A DNA stretch of 64,000 bases from Rhizodiscina lignyota (GCA_010015805.1 ML978126.1:1426001-1490000); one strand, 5' to 3'; counted from the first letter of the stretch, positions 47,871-64,000 are shown. Program-made: numbers and translations. The notes: a model not told the origin generated them from the sequence alone.

Positions 47871-48325
47871 CAAGAATGCTGTGTTCAGAGCAGCTGGCCA
47901 ATCTCCTGTGGGGACTTTCCTCCGAGTGCCCTTTACGTCAATATTACTGTTTTCGTCCAATTTCGAGCGCTTCGGAGGTTATCAGTTCCTCTTGTTCTGT
48001 ATCTCATCTTTCTCGCTTCTGACTCTTGGTTGACTCTGAAGGGACTTGAGGACTGCACCGCTGAAAGCGCCAAGTTCAAAGGTATCTTTCAACTGCGCTT
48101 GAGGATATCCTTGAATATGTAAAAGTTATGAAGCGCGACCTGTACTACGAGTAGATCCTTGCAGTAAGTAAGTGAGACCATGATTTTCTGGCAACGGGTG
48201 AGCTCACCGCAAAGTACGTGAGGCAAATCGGATCAACTTCATACTCACTCCTCGTTTCGCCGCGTCCCACCTCCCACAAGCTTCGCGAAGTCCTCTCATT
48301 TCACTCTTTCAAACACCTCATGAAA

Positions 48326-48810
48326 GCTGCTTCTGGTAAAGTGAAATTCTCAAGGTCGAGGTCGGTCGCTTGGGTGTGAAAGCCCTTTCGTGGAGGCTGC
48401 TTCTGGAACGTGAAATTCTTTACTGAGGAGATCATTCGGTGAAGTGTTAAGGCTTTTTGCGGAAGGTTATTCTTGCGAAGTGAAATATTCCGGGTTGAGG
48501 TTGATCGCGTGAGCATAGAAACCTTTCTATGAGGGCTGTTTCTAGTGAAATGAAGTTTCTCATGCCTGAGGACGGTTGTTGTGTTGCAAAGTCTTTTTAC
48601 AGAAATCTGCTCTTGCGAAGTCACACTTATAACAGTCGCTATTCAGTGCCGGGGTCCCTTTGTAAGCCGGTTGTTCGTTGAGTGAAGCCCTCAACATTAA
48701 GTGCGCTCTATTAGATTGCGACAGTCATTTGAAAGAGATTGTTGCTTCCGAAGTGAAATACTTGAGGCTGACGTTGCCCGATTAAGCGTCATCTGTACGC
48801 GCTAGTGAAA
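48326..48810. repeat. Degenerate ~70-bp minisatellite, ~7 units
   Basis: GCTGCTTCTGG..GTGAAATTCT-like cores at ~48326, 48396, 48466, 48535, 48606, 48670, 48741. Confidence 0.75.
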
Positions 48811-49105
48811 CAGCTATCAGCCAACAATGGGCGACCAACGCCCACATAGGATAAAAAATCTGCCAAAAATAATAATAAAACAATAGACAGTCTCAGTTTC
48901 AGTTTTGCGCTTACTAGTATCGCGTGAAAGTCTGGTGCTATCCTGCCCTGAGCGCGGGCCTAAGCGTGAACTCTATAATCTCTGCCAATTCAGACTATCT
49001 TGTCAAAATAATACTCCAAGTCAAAAAAGAAAAGCCATCCCCCCAAAAATTGGAGGGAGAAAGGACAAACTCTTTGCATATGGGAAAAGAAAAATAAAAT
49101 GGCAA

Positions 49106-49345
49106 AAGACTGCGCCACCTCCAGCTAACTTCGAGGTTAGAGGAGAGGCGCAGGAAAACTTAGCTTTACCCAAGTTTAGTTTAATTTAAAGACTACACCA
49201 CCTCCAATCTAAACCTGTAATGTGCAATACAGGTAGAGAGGAAGGTGCAGGAAACCCCAGTATTACATGGCATTTGCTTTGGTATTTAGTTTTTCAAGAC
49301 TACACCGCCCCATGAGGGGTGCAGGAAAACCAGCATTACCTAGTC
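49106..49345. repeat. Array of three related hairpins with variable-length apices
   Basis: AAGA-CT(G/A)C(G/A)CC...GG(C/T)GCAG-GAAA units at 49110-49153, 49193-49250, 49300-49324. Confidence 0.8.
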
Positions 49346-49425
49346 TTACTTTAGTATTTATTATTACCTAAATATTGTTGTTAGTATATCGAGGACCTGA
49401 CTGAGGGTTCCGGCCTAAATATTAG

Positions 49426-49557
49426 AAAATTGAGGATTCTACGAGGGTCGAACCTAGGGCCCTCTGGTTAGCGGAAGTCATGTGGCAAGGAGTGTACTAA
49501 CCTGGTTTGGAAGGGGAAAGCCGGTGTTAAAAGGTGCCTATGGTGAGCCACGGGCCC
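49426..49557 (-). other. Degenerate tRNA-like sequence (pseudo-tRNA or SINE head)
   Basis: GGGCCCG-TGGCTCA (A-box-like) ... AACCAGAGGGCCCTAGGTTCGACCC (B-box/T-loop) ... TTTT; acceptor and D stems do not pair well. Confidence 0.35.
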
Positions 49558-50899
49558 GGCATTATTGACTGGAGTAAAATGAAAAATAATGATATAGTCA
49601 TAATTCTAAGACCACATTTTGCTAAGGGGCGAAGTCCTTATTTCCTGAGTATGGACATTATGAAAGCCTAGTCGACACACGGACACACGGACTCACGGAG
49701 TATGCACCCCTTTCATAAATAACCAGACGCAAAGCACCCACCGAGATACTCAAGCGCATCCTCTCGTACTATTGGGTAGTAGGGTTACCCTTCTTTCATC
49801 ATTGATGGTTTCCATTCATCAATGTTCGGAAAAGGTGAAGCAGTACGAAGTAGAGCAACGATATTTAATTTGATTCAATTAATCAAGAGAAGTCTTGCAC
49901 CTCAATAGAGAAGACTTTCATATTGAGGCCGAACAAAGGCTGATAGACAATGCGAACTACCCAACTCTTTCGCAGCAGATCTCTTGTACGGACACATGCT
50001 GGGATTTCGAGGCTAAGGTTTCCAGCAGAGCCAATCGATCTCAACTCATGATGCTTGCTTCAATAATCGGCGCCATGTCCGCATTTTTGCATTGAAATAC
50101 AAATGTCCTCATACGAGGGACGCAGTGAGAGGTCGTCTCCTTCACTCCTGCGTTGCTGAAAAGAGCGGCGATCTCCGTCGCTCCAGTCTCCACTTTAAAT
50201 TCTCCTTTGCCCCATTCAATGCATAACAGAGAACTTCTAAATATACATGGCTCCTTAGTTCACACCCTGCTATTGTTTTGCAATATTTGTATACTCAACG
50301 CATATCGACTGTATCCGCCATGAGCGATGTTTGTTAGCATTACCCTGCCCTGCCTGCTACCTCGGCGGCGGCCGCAGTTCGGCAGATCTTCGGTACGTTG
50401 CTGAGTCAGCGAACCTGCGGATTCAGCGTAGAATTGTGGAATTGTGGAACACCTGGGAATCAGTTGTACAACCTCAACCTCATAGCAACGAGACAATGCG
50501 GGCCATTATCTTCGCGTCCTCGTCGATCCACTTTCCACGTGAAGCTGTCGAACAGCAAGAAGCAACTCACTTGTTACTTTTGAGATAGATCAAAGTTTTG
50601 CAGTCGTGGCAATACTTGCGATTTTGGCCACTATCAAACCGGCACTGTGCCTAATCCACCCCAATCTTACGGTGCACCCCAGTCAAGTATCAACTATCGA
50701 TGCGGAACTTGCATCAGATGAGGCATCTCATGTGAGGACAAAGCGCGCTAGTTTTAATTACGAAAGCACTAACAGAGATAATAGAGTTCCGGGAAGATTA
50801 TGCGAAGCCGTGTTGAATGCCGCATCGTGCTCTAGATCAGACATATCATTTCAAAAAAGCTGGCAATAACTAACGAGACATACTTCAGTACCCGTTTTG

Positions 50900-51990
50900 C
50901 ATTCCCGTCCTCAGATAGGTGCCGCAGAAGGACAAGTCCTTCAATACCGTAAAGCAGTGTCTGCCCCACTGCAAAAGGGATCTTGCGACAAAAGCTTTGA
51001 AACCCAACCAAGTCGCCATACTGTGTACCTGCTTGCTTGAGATGCAAATCCGAGAGTCATACTGCGAGATATGTGGGCGCGATCCTGCGACAACCCAAAG
51101 GAAATTGTGGACAAACCCGAGCTGCCTCACTGGTGCACTGAGAAGTACAGAAACATACTGGAAAAGAGCTTGACAGTGACAGAAAGATACCTGCTTGCCT
51201 GCACAGCTAAAAAATCATTTGGCGAAGCATAATGGGAAGCGAAGTATCGTGTTTCTGGATGAATTTGAAAAGACTACGGACGAAGTCACAGAGACACTGC
51301 TCAAGGCTCTTGATGAAGGTGATACATCCAGGAGATCCAAATTGTAGTGTTCTCTGCCGCGCAATGTAGGCACTCTCCAGATCGCCAATACAGGACAAAT
51401 TTGGATCGTCATGAGACAAGCCGGTTGCTCGGTACGAGCGCTTTTGACTCGCATATCAACCGGTTCCATAAGGACCATCTGACTGCACAGATGTTTCGAA
51501 AGGAGAGAACGGCATCGCTGGATCGGCTGACGAGGAAATAGAAAGAGATGCTAGGCATAACATTCACTGTAAGCTGGGAGTTCCACTCTTTACTCAGTAG
51601 ATCTAACGCATTCAGAGCGCACTTGCCTGTCGTATATCAGCCCTTATTCCGTTCGTGCCATTTAACCCAATCGAAGCGGCTGTTTTCGTAAACAAACAAA
51701 GACAAAACTTTGTGGACGATCTGCGAGAACCCATAGATGTTGCAAACGGGAATACAGAAACCACATCTATCTCAATTTTGAGTCCGACGAGAAGCTTTGC
51801 AGACATATCGCAGAGGAAGATTATTACAAGAACGAAGGCGTTGGATCGGTAGAGACAGCTTTCCGGAATATGGTGGTTGAGCCTTTCAACAAGCAGTCCT
51901 TGTTAACGGAAGGTGGTGAGGATGAGATGAACAACGGGCCTGCGGGGCGTTCGGTCAGTTCACGGTGCAGTTAAATGAGGCAGAGGTCGA
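50900..51990 (+). pseudogene. ClpA/B-like AAA+ ATPase relic
   Basis: LKNHLAKHNGKRSIVFLDEFEKTTDEVTETLLKALDEG (~51207-51320), later SALACRISALIPFVPFNPIEAAV after a GT-AG intron; stops and frameshifts; no intact Walker A found. Ends uncertain. Confidence 0.7.
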
Positions 51991-52238
51991 AGTCTTCGAA
52001 GATGACCAGATGTCTGCTTCGACATGATCATTTAGAAGAGACTTGCATTCGGAGGGTGACGTTAGATGTTGAAGGTTGATCGGCGATTACAGAAGAGCGG
52101 ATGTTCTTTAGAAAAGATGCGGATAGCATTGGTAGTATTGATGAGTAGTTTCTTCTTCGACCTCTCTTCTTCCGTCCTATCATGACTGTCCCATTATCCA
52201 TATTACTGTCGCACTGCCACCGTCATAGCGCCCATACA

Positions 52239-53655: not shown

Positions 53656-56133
53656 CTATCCAAAGCTGCTTTCTCTGGCGTACTGCCCCAAAACCAGAAT
53701 ATCCTCAGTTCCAGCAACCTTCTTCCTCATAAGCTTCAAAATATTAACATCCTGATGCCACATCCTGGATGACCTTATCTTGTGCGGTTTCTGTGCTATA
53801 TCACAAATGAGATGCTCCTCTGGGTCAGCAAACCGGTCGTCCCGGATATCTCTGAAGAGCAGATACTCCGTTTCCTCGTTTGCGACTTTCAAAACCATGA
53901 ATCCCGCCGCTACAAGAGTTGAATGGTTGATAGGCTCGTCGATGCTCAAGCCGGAGCTCGAAGAACATTTGCTGAAAATGGTCTTGTATGGACCCCGGAA
54001 GGCGATGGGATTCTTCATCTCGTTGTGAAGCAGGTAAAGGAGAATGGTTTGCGGATTAATCCCAGAAACATTAGCAAGCTGCTTCACACCTTGACAGAGA
54101 ATTTGTCCTCTGACAAAATCGTGCCATGGCCAGCTCTCATGGTATCGGCTTTTGGCACCAACCAAGAAAGCACCAGCAAGCAGCCATGCGAAGGTGACCC
54201 ACTGGAACGGATCCACGCCCTTCATGCGCTCCTGGACGAGGAACGGCACTAAGAGTGAACCGAAGATGACAAGAAAAGCTATTATGAGGGCACTAATTGA
54301 ATACATCCGACAGTGCACCATGATTGAGTCTTCGGAGATGACCCAGCGGTTTATTTCCGGAATGCATCGTTCCAAGTCGCTGGCAACACTTGAAGCTTGA
54401 TTTTTGACTCCAGTGTTACTTGCACGAGGATCCTCGGCTTCCATTGGGATATAATGAGTATTTTGTTCTGGATCGTGGATTAGCTGCTTGCGATTCGTGC
54501 TATACGCACACAGTAATACCTTCGGGACTCCTCCACAACGGAATCCTGGAAGTTGAAATGATATCGGATTCAACAAATGGCAGTTCCACTTGTCGTTTCC
54601 TCTTGAGCGAGGCTTGTGTGTTCAATCGAAACTCGGTCGTGATATCATCGTCAGGATGAAACTCGAACTTCTCAATTAATTCTTCTTCATCGCGAACGTC
54701 CGACCGGAGTAAAGTTGAGAGATGAAGGAGCCAGTGACGCTCAGTTCTGAGCCCAAGCGGAACGAGAACAGATATCAGATCATCAAGCCGATCTGTTTGG
54801 ACTTTCGAAGGTATGCCCGCCTGGCTCCAGCTCATGATAACTGCATCGGATTCTGTGACTCCAGATTTTGGTCTCTTCCCCAGTGTTTCACGAATCCGTT
54901 CGGCGTTCGCGATCGCCAGTTGCAGCGCGATATAACTGTGAACGATCGACGATGAATTTGAAGATACGAGCACGTTGACATGACGAGTTACGAAAAGCTC
55001 GCGCAGAGTTCCGCCAACGCCGCCTTTGTAGATGAGAGTGCGAACTTCGAAACGAGATGACGATCTCGAGCCAGCCTGTTGTACAATCATATTATCAGTG
55101 ACGCCAACAATAATCATCTCCAGGATTTTGCGCAGTTGAAGTTTAGATGCGTAATATCCGAAAGCCAAATTAAGATCGTCGCTCGAAAACTCGATTTTCT
55201 TCGCTTCGTTAGAGCTTCTTTCCAGAAGGTGAATGATGATGCTCTCATCGTCATCTTTATTGGCATTCCATAACTGCCGAATGATCTCGACTCCCCGCTC
55301 CAAACAGCGATCGGCGCAGTGAACAGGGTCCAGGGCAATGATTTTGAGTTTTACTGCCCATCGCGCAAGAATGGCTATTATTTGTGCCTCCCAGTTCTTA
55401 TTTTGCGCGACTCGCATGAGCCACCAAACGGTGGAGCCGAAGATGAAATCCACCATCGCATGATAAACTCGGGTGTTCTTGTCAGTATCTTTCAAGAGTT
55501 TCGGACGACGACCGGTGATGAAACGTGGTTCCTTTCCATAGCGCTCCAGAACTGCTCTTCGGGAAGGTCTGAAAAACTTTTCGTAGAATTCGGCGTTCGG
55601 ACAATGTTCCAAGGCTACGGAAGCGTTGTCGTGCAGAATGATATGTAGGCTGCATTGGATCTGGTCTATCACGGAGGTCAAATCGGCGAATCCATGAGCA
55701 TTTGTCTTGTCAAAGATTCCATTGCTGTCAAAGGGATCCGGTCTTTCGGACTCTGCATATCGACAGTATTTATCTATCTCTTTCCGGACGAGATTGTCTT
55801 CTTCATCTTCGCTCAGGCCATATGGCTTCAAATCATCGAACTTGGGCAGGTTCTCGAATACGCATGGGTTGGTCCTTGATTCCCATGACCTGTGGTCTTT
55901 GGTTGCCTGAAAGACTCGGTTGGGATCCGGGCGATACGCTTGTTGATGTGAACGACGTCTGGAGTGGGTACCTGTACCCTTTTCATCATTACTGCACGTC
56001 TTGTCAGTTCAGGGTATTTATTGTAGCAGCTCACAGGCATTTACCTCAGAGATGGGCTTGAACCGCAATCTCTCACGCTAATGGGGAGAACAGAGCGGCG
56101 TTGAAACAGCTTTGGCGGGTGAAGCGACGCCAT
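53656..56133 (-). CDS. Large protein of unknown function with C-terminal two-TM membrane domain
   Basis: Three exons (introns ~56044-55992 and ~54519-54469) join the ORFs in frame. TM1 YSISALIIAFLVIFGSLLVPFLV, GVDPF, TM2 WVTFAWLLAGAFLVGAKS, then WPWHDFVRGQILC, FRGPY, GLSIDEP. Confidence 0.8.
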
Positions 56134-56937
56134 GGCCAGAAGTGATACTTTTTAGTTGCGGTATTCTCTTTCGCATTATGGGACGAACTGAAATGATGTA
56201 CTTGGAAAGGACATGGATCTAGGCTACAAAAATCCTTTTTGTTCTCCAAACCTCAGCTCAAAGAGGCGGCGAGGCTGAGAACGTCTCAACTTCGAAAGCC
56301 ACAGCGATGTATGTAACGCTGAGCGGAGGCCGCACGCCCAAAGAGATAAATACGAGTCATACCCAACTCCCATTCATGCTACAGCTCAGCCCAAAAAGGT
56401 GCGCAAGCGTCGAGGGTTTCTTACATCTGGGATTTCGAGCCTTGTCAAAAAGATGCGTGATTTAGCCAGGAACCAATGCGACATGATTATAACACAGCCA
56501 CTAACATGCGGGGTACGACCAGTGCGGAAGAGATGCGCAGCACAGCCACAGGGATGCCAGGGTCAAGCCAATGGGAAACAAACTATGGCCTTCTGTCCAG
56601 GCAGCCCTTCACCGGCTGTTGTACTCGGTTCTGCAAGGCTGGAAGCTGATACTTCAGGAATATGCAAGCGCTGCAGCCTGCATTTATTACTAGCGACTCA
56701 GCCTTAACCGATATCTATCAGGCATAACTGAATCCTACCGTTTTTCCAAGTCGCGACCTCCGCTGCGTCAACAATGATACGAAAAACCAAGGAGTGAGCG
56801 CTTGAAACATAACATTTGTATAGTCATCTGTCTGAACACTGCTGAACGGGGTTGAACGGGTACTATATTGCTTCATTTTTACATTTGAAAGTATCATTTT
56901 ATTGCTTGCCGGCCTTCACTGCAAATCCGAAGCGACC

Positions 56938-59218
56938 ATGACGGTCGAAGAATACCGAAGTTTCAAGTCGCATTTAAACTCACCAGAAGAAGACACTGTT
57001 GGTATGGGTCTCCATGAGCATCCAAAGCAATTACTAACTATATTAGCGATAATACCCAAATGGATCGCTATCACGGAGCGCCAGCGGTCCAGAGGCAACC
57101 CACCGGATATTACAGAGTCCTTCAGCTCTTATACCGGGTATGATAAGGACAAATTCTTCTCGAACTATGCCATGGTCCATCGCAAATGTCTTAAACGAAA
57201 GGGGGACCACGAAAAGACCGATGTCGAGATCCAATGCCGGACGATTCAGGCCGTCGTTCGAAAAATCATTGGAATTTATTCGTATCCAGGCATCTTGGCC
57301 GATCCGATTGTGTTCTCTGAGCCTTGTTATCCGCTGTTCCAGTTCAGAGACGAACTAAGCGAGTATGCCGAGTCGAAATCTAACCCTCTGCACGAAAGAC
57401 AGCATCTCGCTCCGTTGATGGATTTCATGAAGAATTCCGAGAGCTTCAAAGAGCTGCAAGACGTTCAAGAGCAGCAGGTGTCAAAGGGACTGATTTCGTT
57501 CAAGCACACTCGACTGCTCTTTCGACCTGGCGACATCATAATTGGCTATGACAGAGACGTGAGGCAGTGCTGGTTGGTGCAATACACTGCGAGCATCGAC
57601 GACAAAGACAAGGAAAAGGATGAATCTTCAGACGAAAGCTCTGACGACGATGAGAAAAAAGCCAAGAAGTCTAAGAAACATATTGAGATATATGCGCTGA
57701 ATTGGGACTTTGATGGCGAGAAGTTTGGACCCTGTTATGCGAGGCTGAAGTTGCGCTCGTTTTCAGGTCTCAGGGCGATTCGAAAATTGAAATATTTTCC
57801 CGTCAAATACCTCCCGGATAATGAAAAGGAGGACGTAATTAGCGAGTTAATTGCTCGAGGTCGAAGGTGGTGTGAGCTCGTGGGTGTCAGTCACTGGAAT
57901 TACAAAGGTACAAGTTCAGAACCATATTCCGGTCTCTGGTATTCTAATCTTGTTTAGGAATTGCAAAAATGGTCAAACAAAGAGATTACTCACACCGGAT
58001 AGACATGGTGCAGGCACATGTAAGTTATATGTGAAACGTTTGATGCTATCGCTGATGACGCAAGGCGACTGGGGAAGTAGTTTTGGACCCCAAAATGTTC
58101 ATGGAGGTATATCCCAGGTTCAAAATCGAGCTTGAAGAATTCTTTCCGGATGGTGATAACGACCTCGATACCCAGGAGAACGGAATAATACATTGCGAGA
58201 AATCTAACCCATGTCCGTCCTCTCACAGAGAGTTTGTCTCTGGAAAGATTAGAAATTGGATTGAACCCGAAGACAAATTCGTAGCGGATGAATTGCAAGC
58301 GCTGCTCTCCCCGGGAGTCACTCCAGGTTGGAGCTTATCGAGTAAGTTCTGGGGTTACTTCCGAGTTGATAGTGCCAACCTCCAAGCGATTGAATGGAAA
58401 GACGATCCGACTCAGGATCTTCATATCGATCCGAAGCACCGGCGATTAATACGGGCCCTGATCAAACAGCACAACTCTGAGCAAGAGCCAATGAAGGATG
58501 TCGTTGCTGGCAAGGGCAGTGGGCTAATCATCCTTCTCAACGGGACCCCGGGATGCGGAAAAACTCTGACTGCAGGTAAGCAAAGAAGATAATTGTGACA
58601 TGGTAAATACTTACCGACTCAATAGAACTGTTTGCAAAACAAGAGAGACGCCCACTCTATTCAGTCTCAGCTAATGACTTGGGGGACTGGCCCTATCAAT
58701 TCGAATCGAAATTGCAGAGGATCTTCAAAGCCGCACAGTTATGGAAAGCCATCCTGCTTATCGACGAGGCAGATATGTTCCTCGGAAAAAGATCATCTTC
58801 CAGCGACTACAGTAGCCGCGTACTGACATCCCTGTTTCTTCGGCGGTTGGAATACTTTCAGGGTATCATGTTTCTCACCACCAACCGATTCATCGACTTT
58901 GATGAGGCTTTTGCGTCAAGAGTACAGTTGATTTTGCAATATCCCGCTCTCGGTCCAGATCACAGGGCGAAGATCTGGGAAGAGCACGTGAAGAACGCGC
59001 GAATATCTCCGGATTGGAATCTGGCGGAGAAATGCCGAGAATTTGGACAGCGGTATGAACTAAATGGACGAGATATCAGGAATCTGGCGCAAGTCTCTAT
59101 CAACATATGTCAGCAAGAGGGTCAACCGCTATCAGAAGACATGATCGAAGAGATTTTCGAACTCAGATATCGCCGCAAAGGCGACATACGCAGATTCATG
59201 AATCCCGCCAAAGCTTAA
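56938..59218 (+). CDS. Single-ring AAA+ ATPase (fungal DUF7025-type family)
   Basis: GLISFKHTRLLFRPGD, WDFDGEKFG, LIARGRRW, WSLSSKFWGYFRVD, DVVAGKGSGLIILLNGTPGCGKTLTA (Walker A), ILLIDEAD (Walker B), LEYFQGIMFLTTNR, DEAFASR, LNGRDIRN. Confidence 0.93.
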
Positions 59219-60738: not shown

Positions 60739-62263
60739 GGCCGATTGACGAAAAATGATAGAATGATTAATTATAGTGCAGCTACCAAAAATGCAAAAGG
60801 AGATGCTAGATTCGTAGCGTGTGGAGAAAAGCACTTTGAGGATGTTCTGTTGCTGAATTACCCGTGCGGTTAGGAGATGCTTTGGTGTCAAACTTGATCG
60901 ATGCCCGAGTGGGGTGGGGGCTTTCTACTATATAGAAGAAATCTCTCCGCAATCGGGCGCGCAGGCAACAACGCGATTGTAACTTTGGTCGTCATAAGGA
61001 CAGGGAGTGTTCAGGGGTGGCCGCACGATATAATCGATGCTAAAGTATACGAAAAACATTATTACGCTGACGAAATTAGGATTGTTTAAGTATCAAGTAT
61101 CTATGCTTTGTCTCTTGACGGGGGTTGTCTCTCAATGTAGGGAGACACGTTAGTCTTGTAAGCGGACTCAAGAATCGCAAATTCATCAGTAAGAGCCAGC
61201 ACGTAAACTCATGCCTCTTCGTCCTGTCGTATATCGCTCGGATCCTCAACACTCCCAGAGCCGGATTCTCGAACAAACTCGCGAAACCGTGTGCATCACT
61301 CTCGGAGCACAAATGCCAGTCTCGCCACTGGTCTTTCAGTGAAGCAAAAAGCGACAAGGTGCTGAATTTGAGCTGCAGAACTTGATGAGTCGGGGCCACC
61401 GGTGAAGCTTCTTTTTCGCCGGAAAGCGTCTGACTCCAAGTGTGCTGTCATTCGCTAGAGAATACAATAGAATTTCAGGGTTATTGAATATTCCTCTCCA
61501 GGCCTAAGAGGACATGAGTATATTGTGCTGCATCGACCTGAGCAAAACCGTTAACCTATCACTCGCTAGACAAGCGAGACGCAAGCCACAGAAGAGATGA
61601 ACGAGCAGCCAGACACATGATTGCGAACTCCGAGCGTGGCGCAAGTGTGGTTGTCTTTGAAGATGGGAACGTTTGCGGTCTGAAGTTTTGGCATGGGCGC
61701 GGAAGATGCCGGACATAAGTCTACATATCCGACTATCAGGGAAATAGGAGGTGATCTGCCGCTGAGTAACAAGTAACAAGATTTGAGCTTCATTCCACAA
61801 CCTGAACGTGACAGAAGTCGGCCCGTGTGCAAATTGCACGTCATTGCTGAGCAATGGTGCTCTCGGGTCAGCGAAATTGGCGGTTCCAATATCGACATGA
61901 CCGAAGACGCGGCTTACCTAACGGGCATAAGCGTGGTCTCAGCCACTGGACATGGGAGACCTCCTCGCGAACCACCAAGCTATGATTCCAAATCTGACAC
62001 CAGTCTGATGGAATACACAACACATGCGACCAACGCTACGCGGCGCACAGCCTCAAGGGTCCGTGGAAGTTAATGTAATTATTCTGAAGCCGGAGATATA
62101 TGTAGGGCTCCTGTCGTAGTCACCTTTCCTTTCGTCTTTTGCACCGCATACTCTTCACAACGCACCCCCACAACATCGCGTCTCTACGCGTTTTCTACCA
62201 TTTCCAACTCCTCGCACTACCCCAATTGAATTACTAATCTCGTAACGTACGACTGCCATCGAA

Positions 62264-64000
62264 ATGAGCAGAGAGGACGTTCTAGGCGCGGTCCTCGCGC
62301 ACGCTTCCGAGAACTCCGAGCTCCTCGTGAAGCTTGGCGCTACCAGCGAAGCTCCCAGCGTCCTGCGCGCCCATCTCACGCACCTGCAGCATCTCAAGGA
62401 TGAATTCGAAGTCCAAGAAAAGAGCCTGTCGGGCCTGAAGGAGACAACAGAATCGCAATTCAAGCTCCACTCCAAATACCGAGACTCCAATATCCGTCGC
62501 TTCTTCTACCGCACGACACGTATGCTTGCGAAATTCGAGGCCAAACAGATGAAGGAGGAGAGGGAATACTTCTCCGCACTGTCCAAGCAGAGCAAAGCGG
62601 AAGAGCGATACAAGTTGCTCAAGCAGGATCTGGACGAAGCGGAGAAAGCTGAAGTTCCGCTGGAATCATTGGCGAAGGAGCATGATGAGATACACAAGAA
62701 GATTGACGAGCTTTATGAATCGCTCTTTGCAGGCCCAACTCCTGGATTCCAAACCGAAGATTCAAGGGAAGGGAACTTCTACAATGCACGACGAAGGAAT
62801 GAACAGACGAAAGCAAGCATCATTGCTGCGAGACGAGCACAAAGACATCTTAACCAGGCGAGTGCGAACCTCAACCGCACGGACAACTATATGCGCTATG
62901 CCCTCGCAGAAGCCGACAACAGCATTTTCTTCTTCGACGAGTCGCTGAATCTCCTGTCTCACAGCGACGAATATCTCTCTTACGCCATAGCTTCCGTTGG
63001 CAAAGCCGAACAAGAACTTCGACCACTGTCTCCAGAAATGGACGAAGCGAGAAAGGCCATCATGATGCATCTCCAAGAAGCCAAGTCGCAAATCAACGCA
63101 CGCCACAACCATGATGCTATAGCTTCAGCAATCACCAATTCGCGGAGCAGAGTTGGTGTCGCAAAGCAACGAGTGAGTGAACTTTTCGAACTGATCAAAA
63201 AAAGAGAACGCGAAGGACTAGAGGAGATCAAAATGACTGCACGAGGTATGGAAGATGCACGACAGGCCCTGCAACAAATTAGGCAAGGAATCTTCGAGGA
63301 GGTTGCTGGGTTCGGAGAGGCAGCACCGGCCTATCTGGAGTGTTGCGATCGTGCCGACGGATTCTGTGCTCTTCCTCCACCACCGCCGTTGGAGGAGCCA
63401 ATTGATGAGAACGACGACCCAATTCTGCAAGCTGCAGCTCGACGGCAAGCTCAGGCTCAGGCTCAAGCTCAAGCTCAAGCTCAAGGCCACAACCATGAAC
63501 ATCCACCTCCGCAGGAAACTGCAGCAACTGGGCCTGTGGATATGCCCGCGGACAACGCCATGGACGTCTCGCCGATTGAACAAGAACACAGGCCCTCGGT
63601 TGCTCCTTCGGTCGGACAGGGCCATCGTACTTCAGTTGCGCCCTCGGTCGCCGCAGTAAACATCTCGAACCTGCCAGCAGACATGCCTCCAAACATGCCT
63701 CTCGATATACCGATGGATCCGCCCAGAGCCGCAGCTCTGCCACCATCGTACGACAACGTCGTCTCCAATCCACCTTCAAACAACGCAGCAGCAAGCCAGC
63801 AGAGTGATCGCCGTACGTCGAATGCTCTCACGCCGACAACAGCTCCACCCACACCACCCGCAGCGCTGCGAGCATCGCTTGCCGCGCATGACCCCGCTCC
63901 TTCCGCCCCAACAGACCGAGACTCAGAGGAAGAGGAGCACGACGCTGAAGATGAAAAAATTCTTCCTCCACCCATCCCTATCGGCGATATAAAGCAACCA
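62264..64000 (+). CDS. Coiled-coil protein with Pro-rich tail, 3'-truncated (absent from ORF track because no stop)
   Basis: MSREDVLGAV..KYRDSNIRRFFY..EEREYF..DELYESLFAGPTPGF..LQQIRQGIFEEV; open to window end; QA repeat and LPPSY. Confidence 0.85.
   Translation, partial: MSREDVLGAVLAHASENSELLVKLGATSEAPSVLRAHLTHLQHLKDEFEVQEKSLSGLKETTESQFKLHSKYRDSNIRRFFYRTTRMLAKFEAKQMKEEREYFSALSKQSKAEERYKLLKQDLDEAEKAEVPLESLAKEHDEIHKKIDELYESLFAGPTPGFQTEDSREGNFYNARRRNEQTKASIIAARRAQRHLNQASANLNRTDNYMRYALAEADNSIFFFDESLNLLSHSDEYLSYAIASVGKAEQELRPLSPEMDEARKAIMMHLQEAKSQINARHNHDAIASAITNSRSRVGVAKQRVSELFELIKKREREGLEEIKMTARGMEDARQALQQIRQGIFEEVAGFGEAAPAYLECCDRADGFCALPPPPPLEEPIDENDDPILQAAARRQAQAQAQAQAQAQGHNHEHPPPQETAATGPVDMPADNAMDVSPIEQEHRPSVAPSVGQGHRTSVAPSVAAVNISNLPADMPPNMPLDIPMDPPRAAALPPSYDNVVSNPPSNNAAASQQSDRRTSNALTPTTAPPTPPAALRASLAAHDPAPSAPTDRDSEEEEHDAEDEKILPPPIPIGDIKQP
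63445..63487 (+). repeat. (CARGCT)n hexamer microsatellite encoding Gln-Ala
   Basis: CAAGCTCAGGCTCAGGCTCAAGCTCAAGCTCAAGCTCAAG. Confidence 0.9.

Follow-up and report, generated by a model that had tools for sequence, protein, structure and literature searches.

A head-to-head gene pair for a DUF7025 AAA ATPase and a predicted hairpin membrane protein in Rhizodiscina lignyota, well supported as a co-inherited module of Pezizomycotina

Within the classical clade of AAA ATPases, Msp1/ATAD1 extracts membrane proteins from the outer mitochondrial and peroxisomal membranes. Msp1 is anchored in the membrane by its own N-terminus, and its N-region is short. Pex1/Pex6 is a soluble AAA ATPase and relies on the tail-anchored Pex15/PEX26, which has a large cytosolic domain; the PEX genes are not known to form such a divergent pair of conserved neighbours. 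Adjacent genes for a membrane protein and a nucleotide-dependent or enzymatic partner, patchily distributed in Pezizomycotina, are described for het-S/nwd2, HELLP/PNT1 and gasdermin/protease in the available parts of two reviews on fungal cell death (PMC12881547, PMC10197012). Here, a stretch of 64,000 nucleotides from the dothideomycete Rhizodiscina lignyota (GCA_010015805.1 ML978126.1:1426001-1490000), referred to as the window, was analysed for a head-to-head pair that an initial annotation, made by a model from the sequence alone, had pointed out. Gene A encodes a soluble ATPase with a DUF7025 and an AAA domain (P0159), and gene B a protein with a predicted membrane hairpin (P0001). On the basis of sequence comparisons, the pair appears to be an old, divergently transcribed two-gene module of Pezizomycotina, for which co-inheritance is well supported, and A and B very likely function as one unit.

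A dedicated subclade of DUF7025 ATPases was found to be kept head to head with one subclade of B at a spacing of approx. 0.5-1 kb, and both have diverged in parallel while their neighbours changed. Metagenome contigs of the Joint Genome Institute (JGI) were scanned with the B alignment, which yielded ten loci (L001-L010), and matches to A and B were located therein by tblastn with the exon translations of both genes. A relative of A was located head to head upstream of the B relative in eight of the ten loci. In L001, L002, L004, L005, L008 and L010, all three exon pieces of A were matched on the strand opposite to B and upstream of it, while L006 and L007 contained the N-terminal part of a head-to-head ATPase that is cut off where the contig stops. 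An A neighbour could not be seen in L003 and L009, where the sequence ahead of the B match is just 538 and 691 nt long, whereas the A and B matches of the other loci are separated by 789-1288 nt. Hence, every locus with room for a neighbour (8 of 8) carries the pair. L009 is 98% identical on the DNA level to L008 and L010, both of which bear the pair, and L003 represents a further B lineage. The pairs belong to six lineages, namely L001/L002, L004, L005, L006/L007, L008-L010 and the window, and the identity between lineages, calculated over concatenated A and B matches, is mostly 25-45%. The ATG-to-ATG spacing was estimated at 530-978 nt in the related loci compared to 804 nt in the window.

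The DUF7025 ATPase family is large, with at least 137 relatives of P0159 at an E-value of 1e-3 or better, so that some chance neighbours of B would be expected and the pair could be leftover synteny or coincidence without functional meaning. This explanation is hardly credible, given that all eight loci share orientation and spacing at 26-40% protein identity, that the ATPase neighbours come from one subclade and that other neighbours were not retained. None of the 76 other open reading frames (ORFs) between 40 and 64 kb of the window matched any of the metagenomic loci. The flanks of loci from different lineages have nothing in common except one HET-domain ORF, and the genes found there are unrelated ones (ubiquitin, MFS transporter, PEBP, DUF3425). 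A second A-like or B-like gene was found neither in the 58 kb of the window outside the pair nor in 37 kb of locus flanks, i.e. in 95 kb of flanking DNA. The head-to-head arrangement is thus far beyond chance.

The phylogenies of both proteins were compared next to their positions. For A, a tree with 85 rows was calculated from the window protein, the eight locus ATPases and the 76 best database matches (P0160-P0235), with the 43 weaker of the listed matches left out. All nine B-adjacent ATPases fell into one clade of 14 rows with a support of 99 in the Shimodaira-Hasegawa-like approximate likelihood ratio test (SH-aLRT). The other five rows of this clade are P0160 (Xylariales sp.), P0161, P0162, P0163 (Thozetella sp.) and P0226 (Hyaloscypha variabilis). 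The B tree, calculated with FastTree, contained 91 rows (the window, the ten loci, 79 long representatives and P0007) and placed all eleven copies of B from the window and the loci in one clade of 24 rows with a support of 100. The same three sub-groups were observed in both trees: the window with L001/L002, joined by L003 in the B tree, then L004-L007 and finally L008-L010. The pairwise distances of A and B were strongly correlated over eight pairs (Mantel r 0.92, reached by 1 of 20000 permutations), and a correlation was also seen with one locus per lineage (Mantel r 0.60, reached by 20 of 720 permutations). Together, these results support co-inheritance well: the adjacency was kept, no other neighbour was kept, the ATPases stem from one subclade and the A and B distances are correlated. 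The initial annotation had proposed a co-inherited two-gene system and had named enriched adjacency and a comparison of the gene trees as ways to check it; the paired loci, the congruent trees and the loss of synteny around the pair agree with this proposal.

Representatives of Dothideomycetes occur in all three B-adjacent sub-groups and the genus Apiospora in two of them (P0033 from A. marii and P0029 from A. arundinis). As classes are mixed across the sub-groups, these either go back to old paralogues or have been passed from one class to another.

The gene models were established by reading the window in all frames and following GT-AG introns (Table 1). Both genes are intact, and the divergent layout with a shared spacer of about 800 bp that had initially been annotated holds true with exact coordinates. 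Gene B contains two GT-AG introns (53 and 52 nt), and its spliced translation equals P0001 letter for letter, which is 100% identical to the R. lignyota hypothetical protein NA57DRAFT_56618. Gene A contains four very short GT-AG introns (45, 50, 45 and 50 nt) and its spliced translation equals the deposited R. lignyota protein P0159 letter for letter. A 17-nt micro-exon (58003..58019), which results from an alternative acceptor with the frame kept, was considered for gene A and dropped, as the deposited exon 57958..58019 reproduces P0159. No inverted repeats were detected around the pair.

Table 1. Coordinates of the A/B gene pair and its features, counted from the first nucleotide of the window (TM1 and TM2, transmembrane helices 1 and 2).
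Feature	Position	Strand	Details
Gene B	53656..56133	minus	3 exons: 56133..56045, 55991..54520, 54467..53656; 790 aa
B N-terminal domain	54424..55945	minus	aa 46-535, predicted cytosolic; helical bundle and alpha/beta; interrupted by 52-nt intron 54468..54519
B membrane hairpin (predicted)	54148..54309	minus	aa 574-627: TM1, turn with invariant V605-D606-P607, TM2
B WPWHDF, conserved C-terminal alpha/beta domain and stop codon	53656..54147	minus	aa 628-790
A/B spacer	56134..56937	unstranded	804 bp between both ATGs; presumed bidirectional promoter
Gene A	56938..59218	plus	5 exons: 56938..57001, 57047..57907, 57958..58019, 58065..58575, 58626..59218; 696 aa
DUF7025 domain of A	57469..57816	plus	aa 163-278; PF22942, E 1.1e-18
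AAA module of A	58530..58939	plus	aa 485-604; PF00004, E 3.6e-19; split by intron 58576..58625
Walker A of A	58542..58565	plus	GTPGCGKT, aa 489-496
Walker B of A	58754..58774	plus	D546/E547

A belongs to the fungal ATPases in which DUF7025 stands N-terminal of a single AAA module. The DUF7025 (PF22942) and AAA (PF00004) domains passed the Pfam gathering scores with 67.7 bits (cut-off 27) and 70 bits (cut-off 21.2), respectively. AAA_lid_13 (PF23232) matched weakly with 18.9 bits and an E-value of 2e-3, beneath the cut-off of 27, whereas many relatives do carry this domain. The GTPGCGKT motif (K495/T496), D546/E547, N586, R598 and R648 were invariant across 48 aligned family members. We take N586 to be the sensor-1 residue, R598 the Arg finger and R648 the sensor-2 residue. 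The complete AAA+ motif set behind a long N-terminal part, as recognised in the initial annotation, is thereby confirmed. P0159 contains no hydrophobic helix, with a Kyte-Doolittle maximum of 1.08 in windows of 19 residues. A word-limited search listed the best 120 of 137 relatives. Three of the first four matches covered 98% of the query at 35-36% identity and scored about 440 bits, and the other one, P0161, a fragment of 392 aa, was 56% identical over 53% of P0159. After these first four, the scores fell steeply to 262 bits and lower.

The AlphaFold2 (AF2) model of A was confident, with a predicted local distance difference test (pLDDT) value of 84.0 and a predicted template modelling (pTM) score of 0.82. 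In this model, a beta-rich N-region (residues ~20-350) is followed by a disordered loop (355-393), and a small beta unit precedes the AAA module. In Foldseek, the AAA fold matched best to yeast Msp1 (9l26_E, E 1.5e-12, 24% identity over 245 columns, template modelling score by target 0.59), followed by proteasomal Rpt subunits, FIGNL1, katanin and human ATAD1 (7upt_B, E 1.9e-11). The preference for Msp1 is weak, since Rpt, FIGNL1 and katanin follow within an order of magnitude. When the PDB was searched by sequence with the C-terminal half of A, VAT, FIGNL1 and Msp1 (5w0t_A, E 4e-5) were matched. PADLOC matches of A to IetA and TRIP13 (E 1e-10 to 2e-4) covered only the generic AAA core, and membership in these families was rejected.

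B is predicted to carry a disordered N-terminus (residues 1-45), a large N-terminal domain and a membrane hairpin, followed by a further folded domain. The hydropathy profile revealed a strong helix at residues 568-601 (Kyte-Doolittle 2.86) and a weaker second one at ~607-627. In the AF2 model, which was built with 52 sequences and is confident (pLDDT 83.4, pTM 0.84), DSSP assigned a helix to residues 539-559 and membrane-length helices to 574-598 and 607-627. The motifs GVDPF, WPWHDF and RGPY are located at residues 604-608, 633-638 and 678-681, with WPWHDF at the predicted membrane edge. In the C-terminal region, W633, W635, F638, G679, P680, F685 and G693 are invariant in 52 sequences, and most blocks reach a pLDDT of ~89-96. 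The large N-region, the two helices and the three motifs had been noted initially and were found as described, whereas the hairpin does not form the C-terminal end as then assumed: a conserved, folded domain of ~160 aa follows. The hairpin is kept in every metagenomic locus that extends to it. Since it returns to its starting side, both large domains of B should lie on the same face of the membrane. This face is presumably the cytosolic one, as no signal peptide was seen.

No described family could be assigned to B. P0001 matched no Pfam family at an E-value of 0.1, no NCBIfam and no PADLOC entry, and 51 of 52 family members were without a Pfam match, the remaining one showing a weak match to DUF2207_C. 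The family profile gave no matches in the PDB at E 1, and a Foldseek search of the PDB with the B model, submitted as one whole chain, gave none at 0.001 or better. VIA-align returned generic helical hairpins only (residues ~562-645, Z ≤6.7). By features, the ESM Atlas contained no usable match for B, and its own model of B was poor (pLDDT 0.36). Across 185,579 prokaryotic genomes, a search with a narrowed alignment gave 25 pattern matches with no relative of B among them. A and B are not homologous to each other according to hhalign with both profiles (probability 1.1%).

The B family is nevertheless large. The C-terminal exon was used as query in an exhaustive HMMER search of 1.84 billion cluster representatives (clusters at 50% identity), of which 305 matched at E 1e-3 or better and 268 at 1e-10 or better. 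A typical match is a protein of ~800 aa with the matching part near the C-terminus. Among the best 150 representatives, 79 were at least 600 aa long, and B can be considered a single full-length family because 71 of these 79 also matched the N-domain in a plain phmmer search. Twenty representatives were looked up; those with a named source derive from Sordariomycetes, Dothideomycetes, Eurotiomycetes, Orbiliomycetes and Pezizomycetes, all within Pezizomycotina (class placement with taxonomy checked for seven names), and are annotated as hypothetical or uncharacterized proteins throughout.

Several database homologues of B comprise only ~500 aa (P0002-P0006 and P0008), and all of them end at the site of the second intron of B. 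They look like gene calls on metagenome contigs that ignored introns, rather than a shorter form of the protein. Such calls hide the membrane domain and split the family into N-parts of ~500 aa and C-parts of ~270 aa (e.g. P0009-P0014). The C-terminal exon of B follows in nine of the ten metagenomic loci; L005 is cut at the contig end.

Concerning the function of the pair, we lean slightly towards B docking the ATPase at a membrane, and possibly being remodelled by it itself, in the way that Pex15/PEX26 recruits Pex1/Pex6. This reading is drawn from the nearest folds of A, which pull on proteins and of which Msp1/ATAD1 is membrane-anchored, from the missing anchor in A and from the hairpin anchor that B supplies. 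A and B would be co-expressed from the shared spacer. A, an Msp1/ATAD1-like yet soluble protein without its own anchor, would work at the membrane through B, whose hairpin would place both large domains on the cytosolic face. The ATPase ring would dock on B as its receptor or adaptor, with B possibly being a client too, and ATP hydrolysis by A would remodel B or membrane proteins bound to it. From the Msp1/ATAD1-type likeness together with the B hairpin, we infer that the ATPase may control or remodel a membrane-acting partner, as had been suggested initially.

With Msp1/ATAD1, A shares the single AAA module, Walker A and B, the sensor-1 Asn and the Arg finger, and Msp1 was its best Foldseek match. 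In contrast to Msp1, A has no hydrophobic helix and a 450-aa N-region bearing DUF7025, the aromatic pore loop is not conserved in its family, and the anchor resides on a separate, adjacent gene product, which presumably serves A. The likeness to Pex1/Pex6 with Pex15/PEX26 lies in the combination of a soluble AAA protein with a membrane-anchored partner, as in the working model for A and B. Similarity to Pex15 in sequence or fold was not found, although no search was aimed at it. Pex15 has one C-terminal anchor, while B has a hairpin and then another domain. Compared to other DUF7025 ATPases, the B-adjacent subclade differs by its tie to a fixed membrane-protein neighbour.

Several observations weigh against the docking of A by B or narrow its basis. 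The pore-loop-1 aromatic residue is not conserved in the DUF7025 family, whose consensus is GDLGTxP (region of residues 517-524 in P0159), and in the B-adjacent clade the position is occupied by W, H, Y or F or is absent. The window protein has W521-P-Y and L005 a Tyr, whereas L004 and L008/L010 are devoid of an aromatic residue. Msp1-style threading by A is therefore uncertain, and the family, despite its invariant motifs for ATP binding and hydrolysis, may not use standard substrate threading. Furthermore, the adjacency data cover one B subclade (24 of 91 tree rows), and no A-B fusion protein was found among 120 A-family and 160 B-family proteins. The trees were calculated with fast methods, namely an IQ-TREE quick search with SH-aLRT for A and FastTree for B, and one long-branch join was flagged in the A tree (L008/L010 with P0226). 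Contact between A and B, their co-expression and the membrane seating are each inferred. A complex prediction for A 1-350 with B 46-535 scored 0.00 against a mark of 0.34; it was run without controls or family alignments and counts as evidence neither for nor against contact.

The conserved head-to-head layout with its spacing of 0.5-1 kb would also be in agreement with shared regulation only, in which a bidirectional promoter switches on both genes for the same condition and the proteins act separately without binding each other. According to the available part of one study, conserved divergent gene pairs in eukaryotes are linked transcriptionally as well as functionally (PMC2871058). The spacers of the six lineages were compared accordingly for common words. 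No 7-9-mer was common to four to six of them at several combinations of k and threshold, none being found in all six, and shuffled sequences gave the same result. Shared regulation would moreover leave unexplained why, among the many paralogues of the ATPase family, only one subclade stands beside B and why the protein distances of A and B track each other. Taken as the whole explanation, it is considered unlikely.

One type of neighbour recurred in the flanks of the metagenomic loci. A HET-domain ORF is located downstream of the ATPase in two of five metagenomic lineages (L001:3372-4619 and L005:2917-3555, both on the minus strand). In L005, it extends as NB-ARC and TPR (L005:2436-2768 and L005:1347-2432), which is the architecture of a fungal NOD-like receptor (NLR). 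Both HET ORFs are 50% identical over 236 aa and hence closer to each other than the A or B proteins of these loci. The HET neighbour is absent from L002, a close relative of L001 with an MFS transporter in this place, and from the whole 64-kb window.

Selection could be assessed in the near-identical loci L008, L009 and L010, the single testable lineage. Gene A showed 10 synonymous and 2 non-synonymous changes over 571 codons with a ratio of non-synonymous to synonymous substitution rates (dN/dS) of 0.057. For the N-domain piece of gene B (388 codons), dN/dS was between 0.05 and 0.19; the C-terminal pieces of B, whose match ranges differ, were left out. Both genes are under purifying selection.

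These data also bear on a third reading, a conflict, immunity or cell-death module in which B would be a dormant effector that damages membranes and the ATPase would either detect a trigger or restrain B, comparable to het-S/nwd2, HELLP/PNT1, gasdermin/protease or toxin-antidote pairs. Few members of the B-adjacent clade carry a species name, and these are scattered over classes, and the mixing of classes within the sub-groups would fit old paralogy with loss, or transfer. The HET genes downstream of the ATPase in two lineages, one of them with NLR architecture, would suit such a role, and the known fungal two-gene cell-death clusters join a membrane-targeting protein to a regulator as far as described in the available part of PMC12881547. 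However, B matches no HeLo, HeLo-like, gasdermin, patatin or any other Pfam or PADLOC family. The regulators in these clusters are STAND NLRs or proteases according to the parts available of PMC12881547 and PMC10197012, in which the term 'AAA' was not found, whereas A is a classical AAA protein and not a STAND NTPase. The missing HET neighbour in L002 and the window argues against a conflict module as well, and so does the purifying rather than diversifying selection in the lineage tested. A module of this kind thus seems slightly less probable still than shared regulation. The analogy to cell-death and defence pairs, with which the initial annotation had introduced the locus, finds no direct support in view of the lack of a known effector family for B, the type of ATPase and the mode of selection.

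A bolder extension would be an unrecognised class of fungal two-component membrane systems with this pair as its first example, in which each B subfamily has a cognate DUF7025 ATPase that gates the assembly of B in a membrane and B acts as executioner or channel in cell death, immunity or a toxin-antidote system. It is regarded as improbable.

In the literature searched, which covered few subscription journals, DUF7025, PF22942, PF23232 and AAA_lid_13 were not mentioned, and no description of such a pair of ATPase and membrane protein was found, although it may be described elsewhere. The link of one DUF7025 subclade to a fixed membrane-protein neighbour thus appears to be undescribed. The family of DUF7025 AAA ATPases is large and rich in paralogues in filamentous fungi, and the B family, with at least 305 clusters and a confident predicted structure, is unnamed; the co-diverging partnership provides a first functional handle on both. 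If B anchors an Msp1-like machine or is its client, the pair would constitute a new fungal system for membrane-protein remodelling. If it is a conflict module, the fungal cell-death pairs with NLRs or proteases would be joined by a type that uses an AAA protein. Should every subfamily of B, whose clusters extend to the early-branching Pezizomycetes and Orbiliomycetes, have a cognate ATPase, this would give a role to the large DUF7025 expansion in fungi.

Beside the pair, the window contains an open frame of 584 aa on the plus strand (62246-64000), which has no Pfam match and runs past the window end. On the other side, a stretch of ~4.2 kb (47979-52238) is devoid of ORFs of at least 130 aa and contains nine shorter ones without a Pfam match. 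Three diverged copies of a 43-nt unit were observed therein at 48333-48787 as the sole short direct-repeat family seen.

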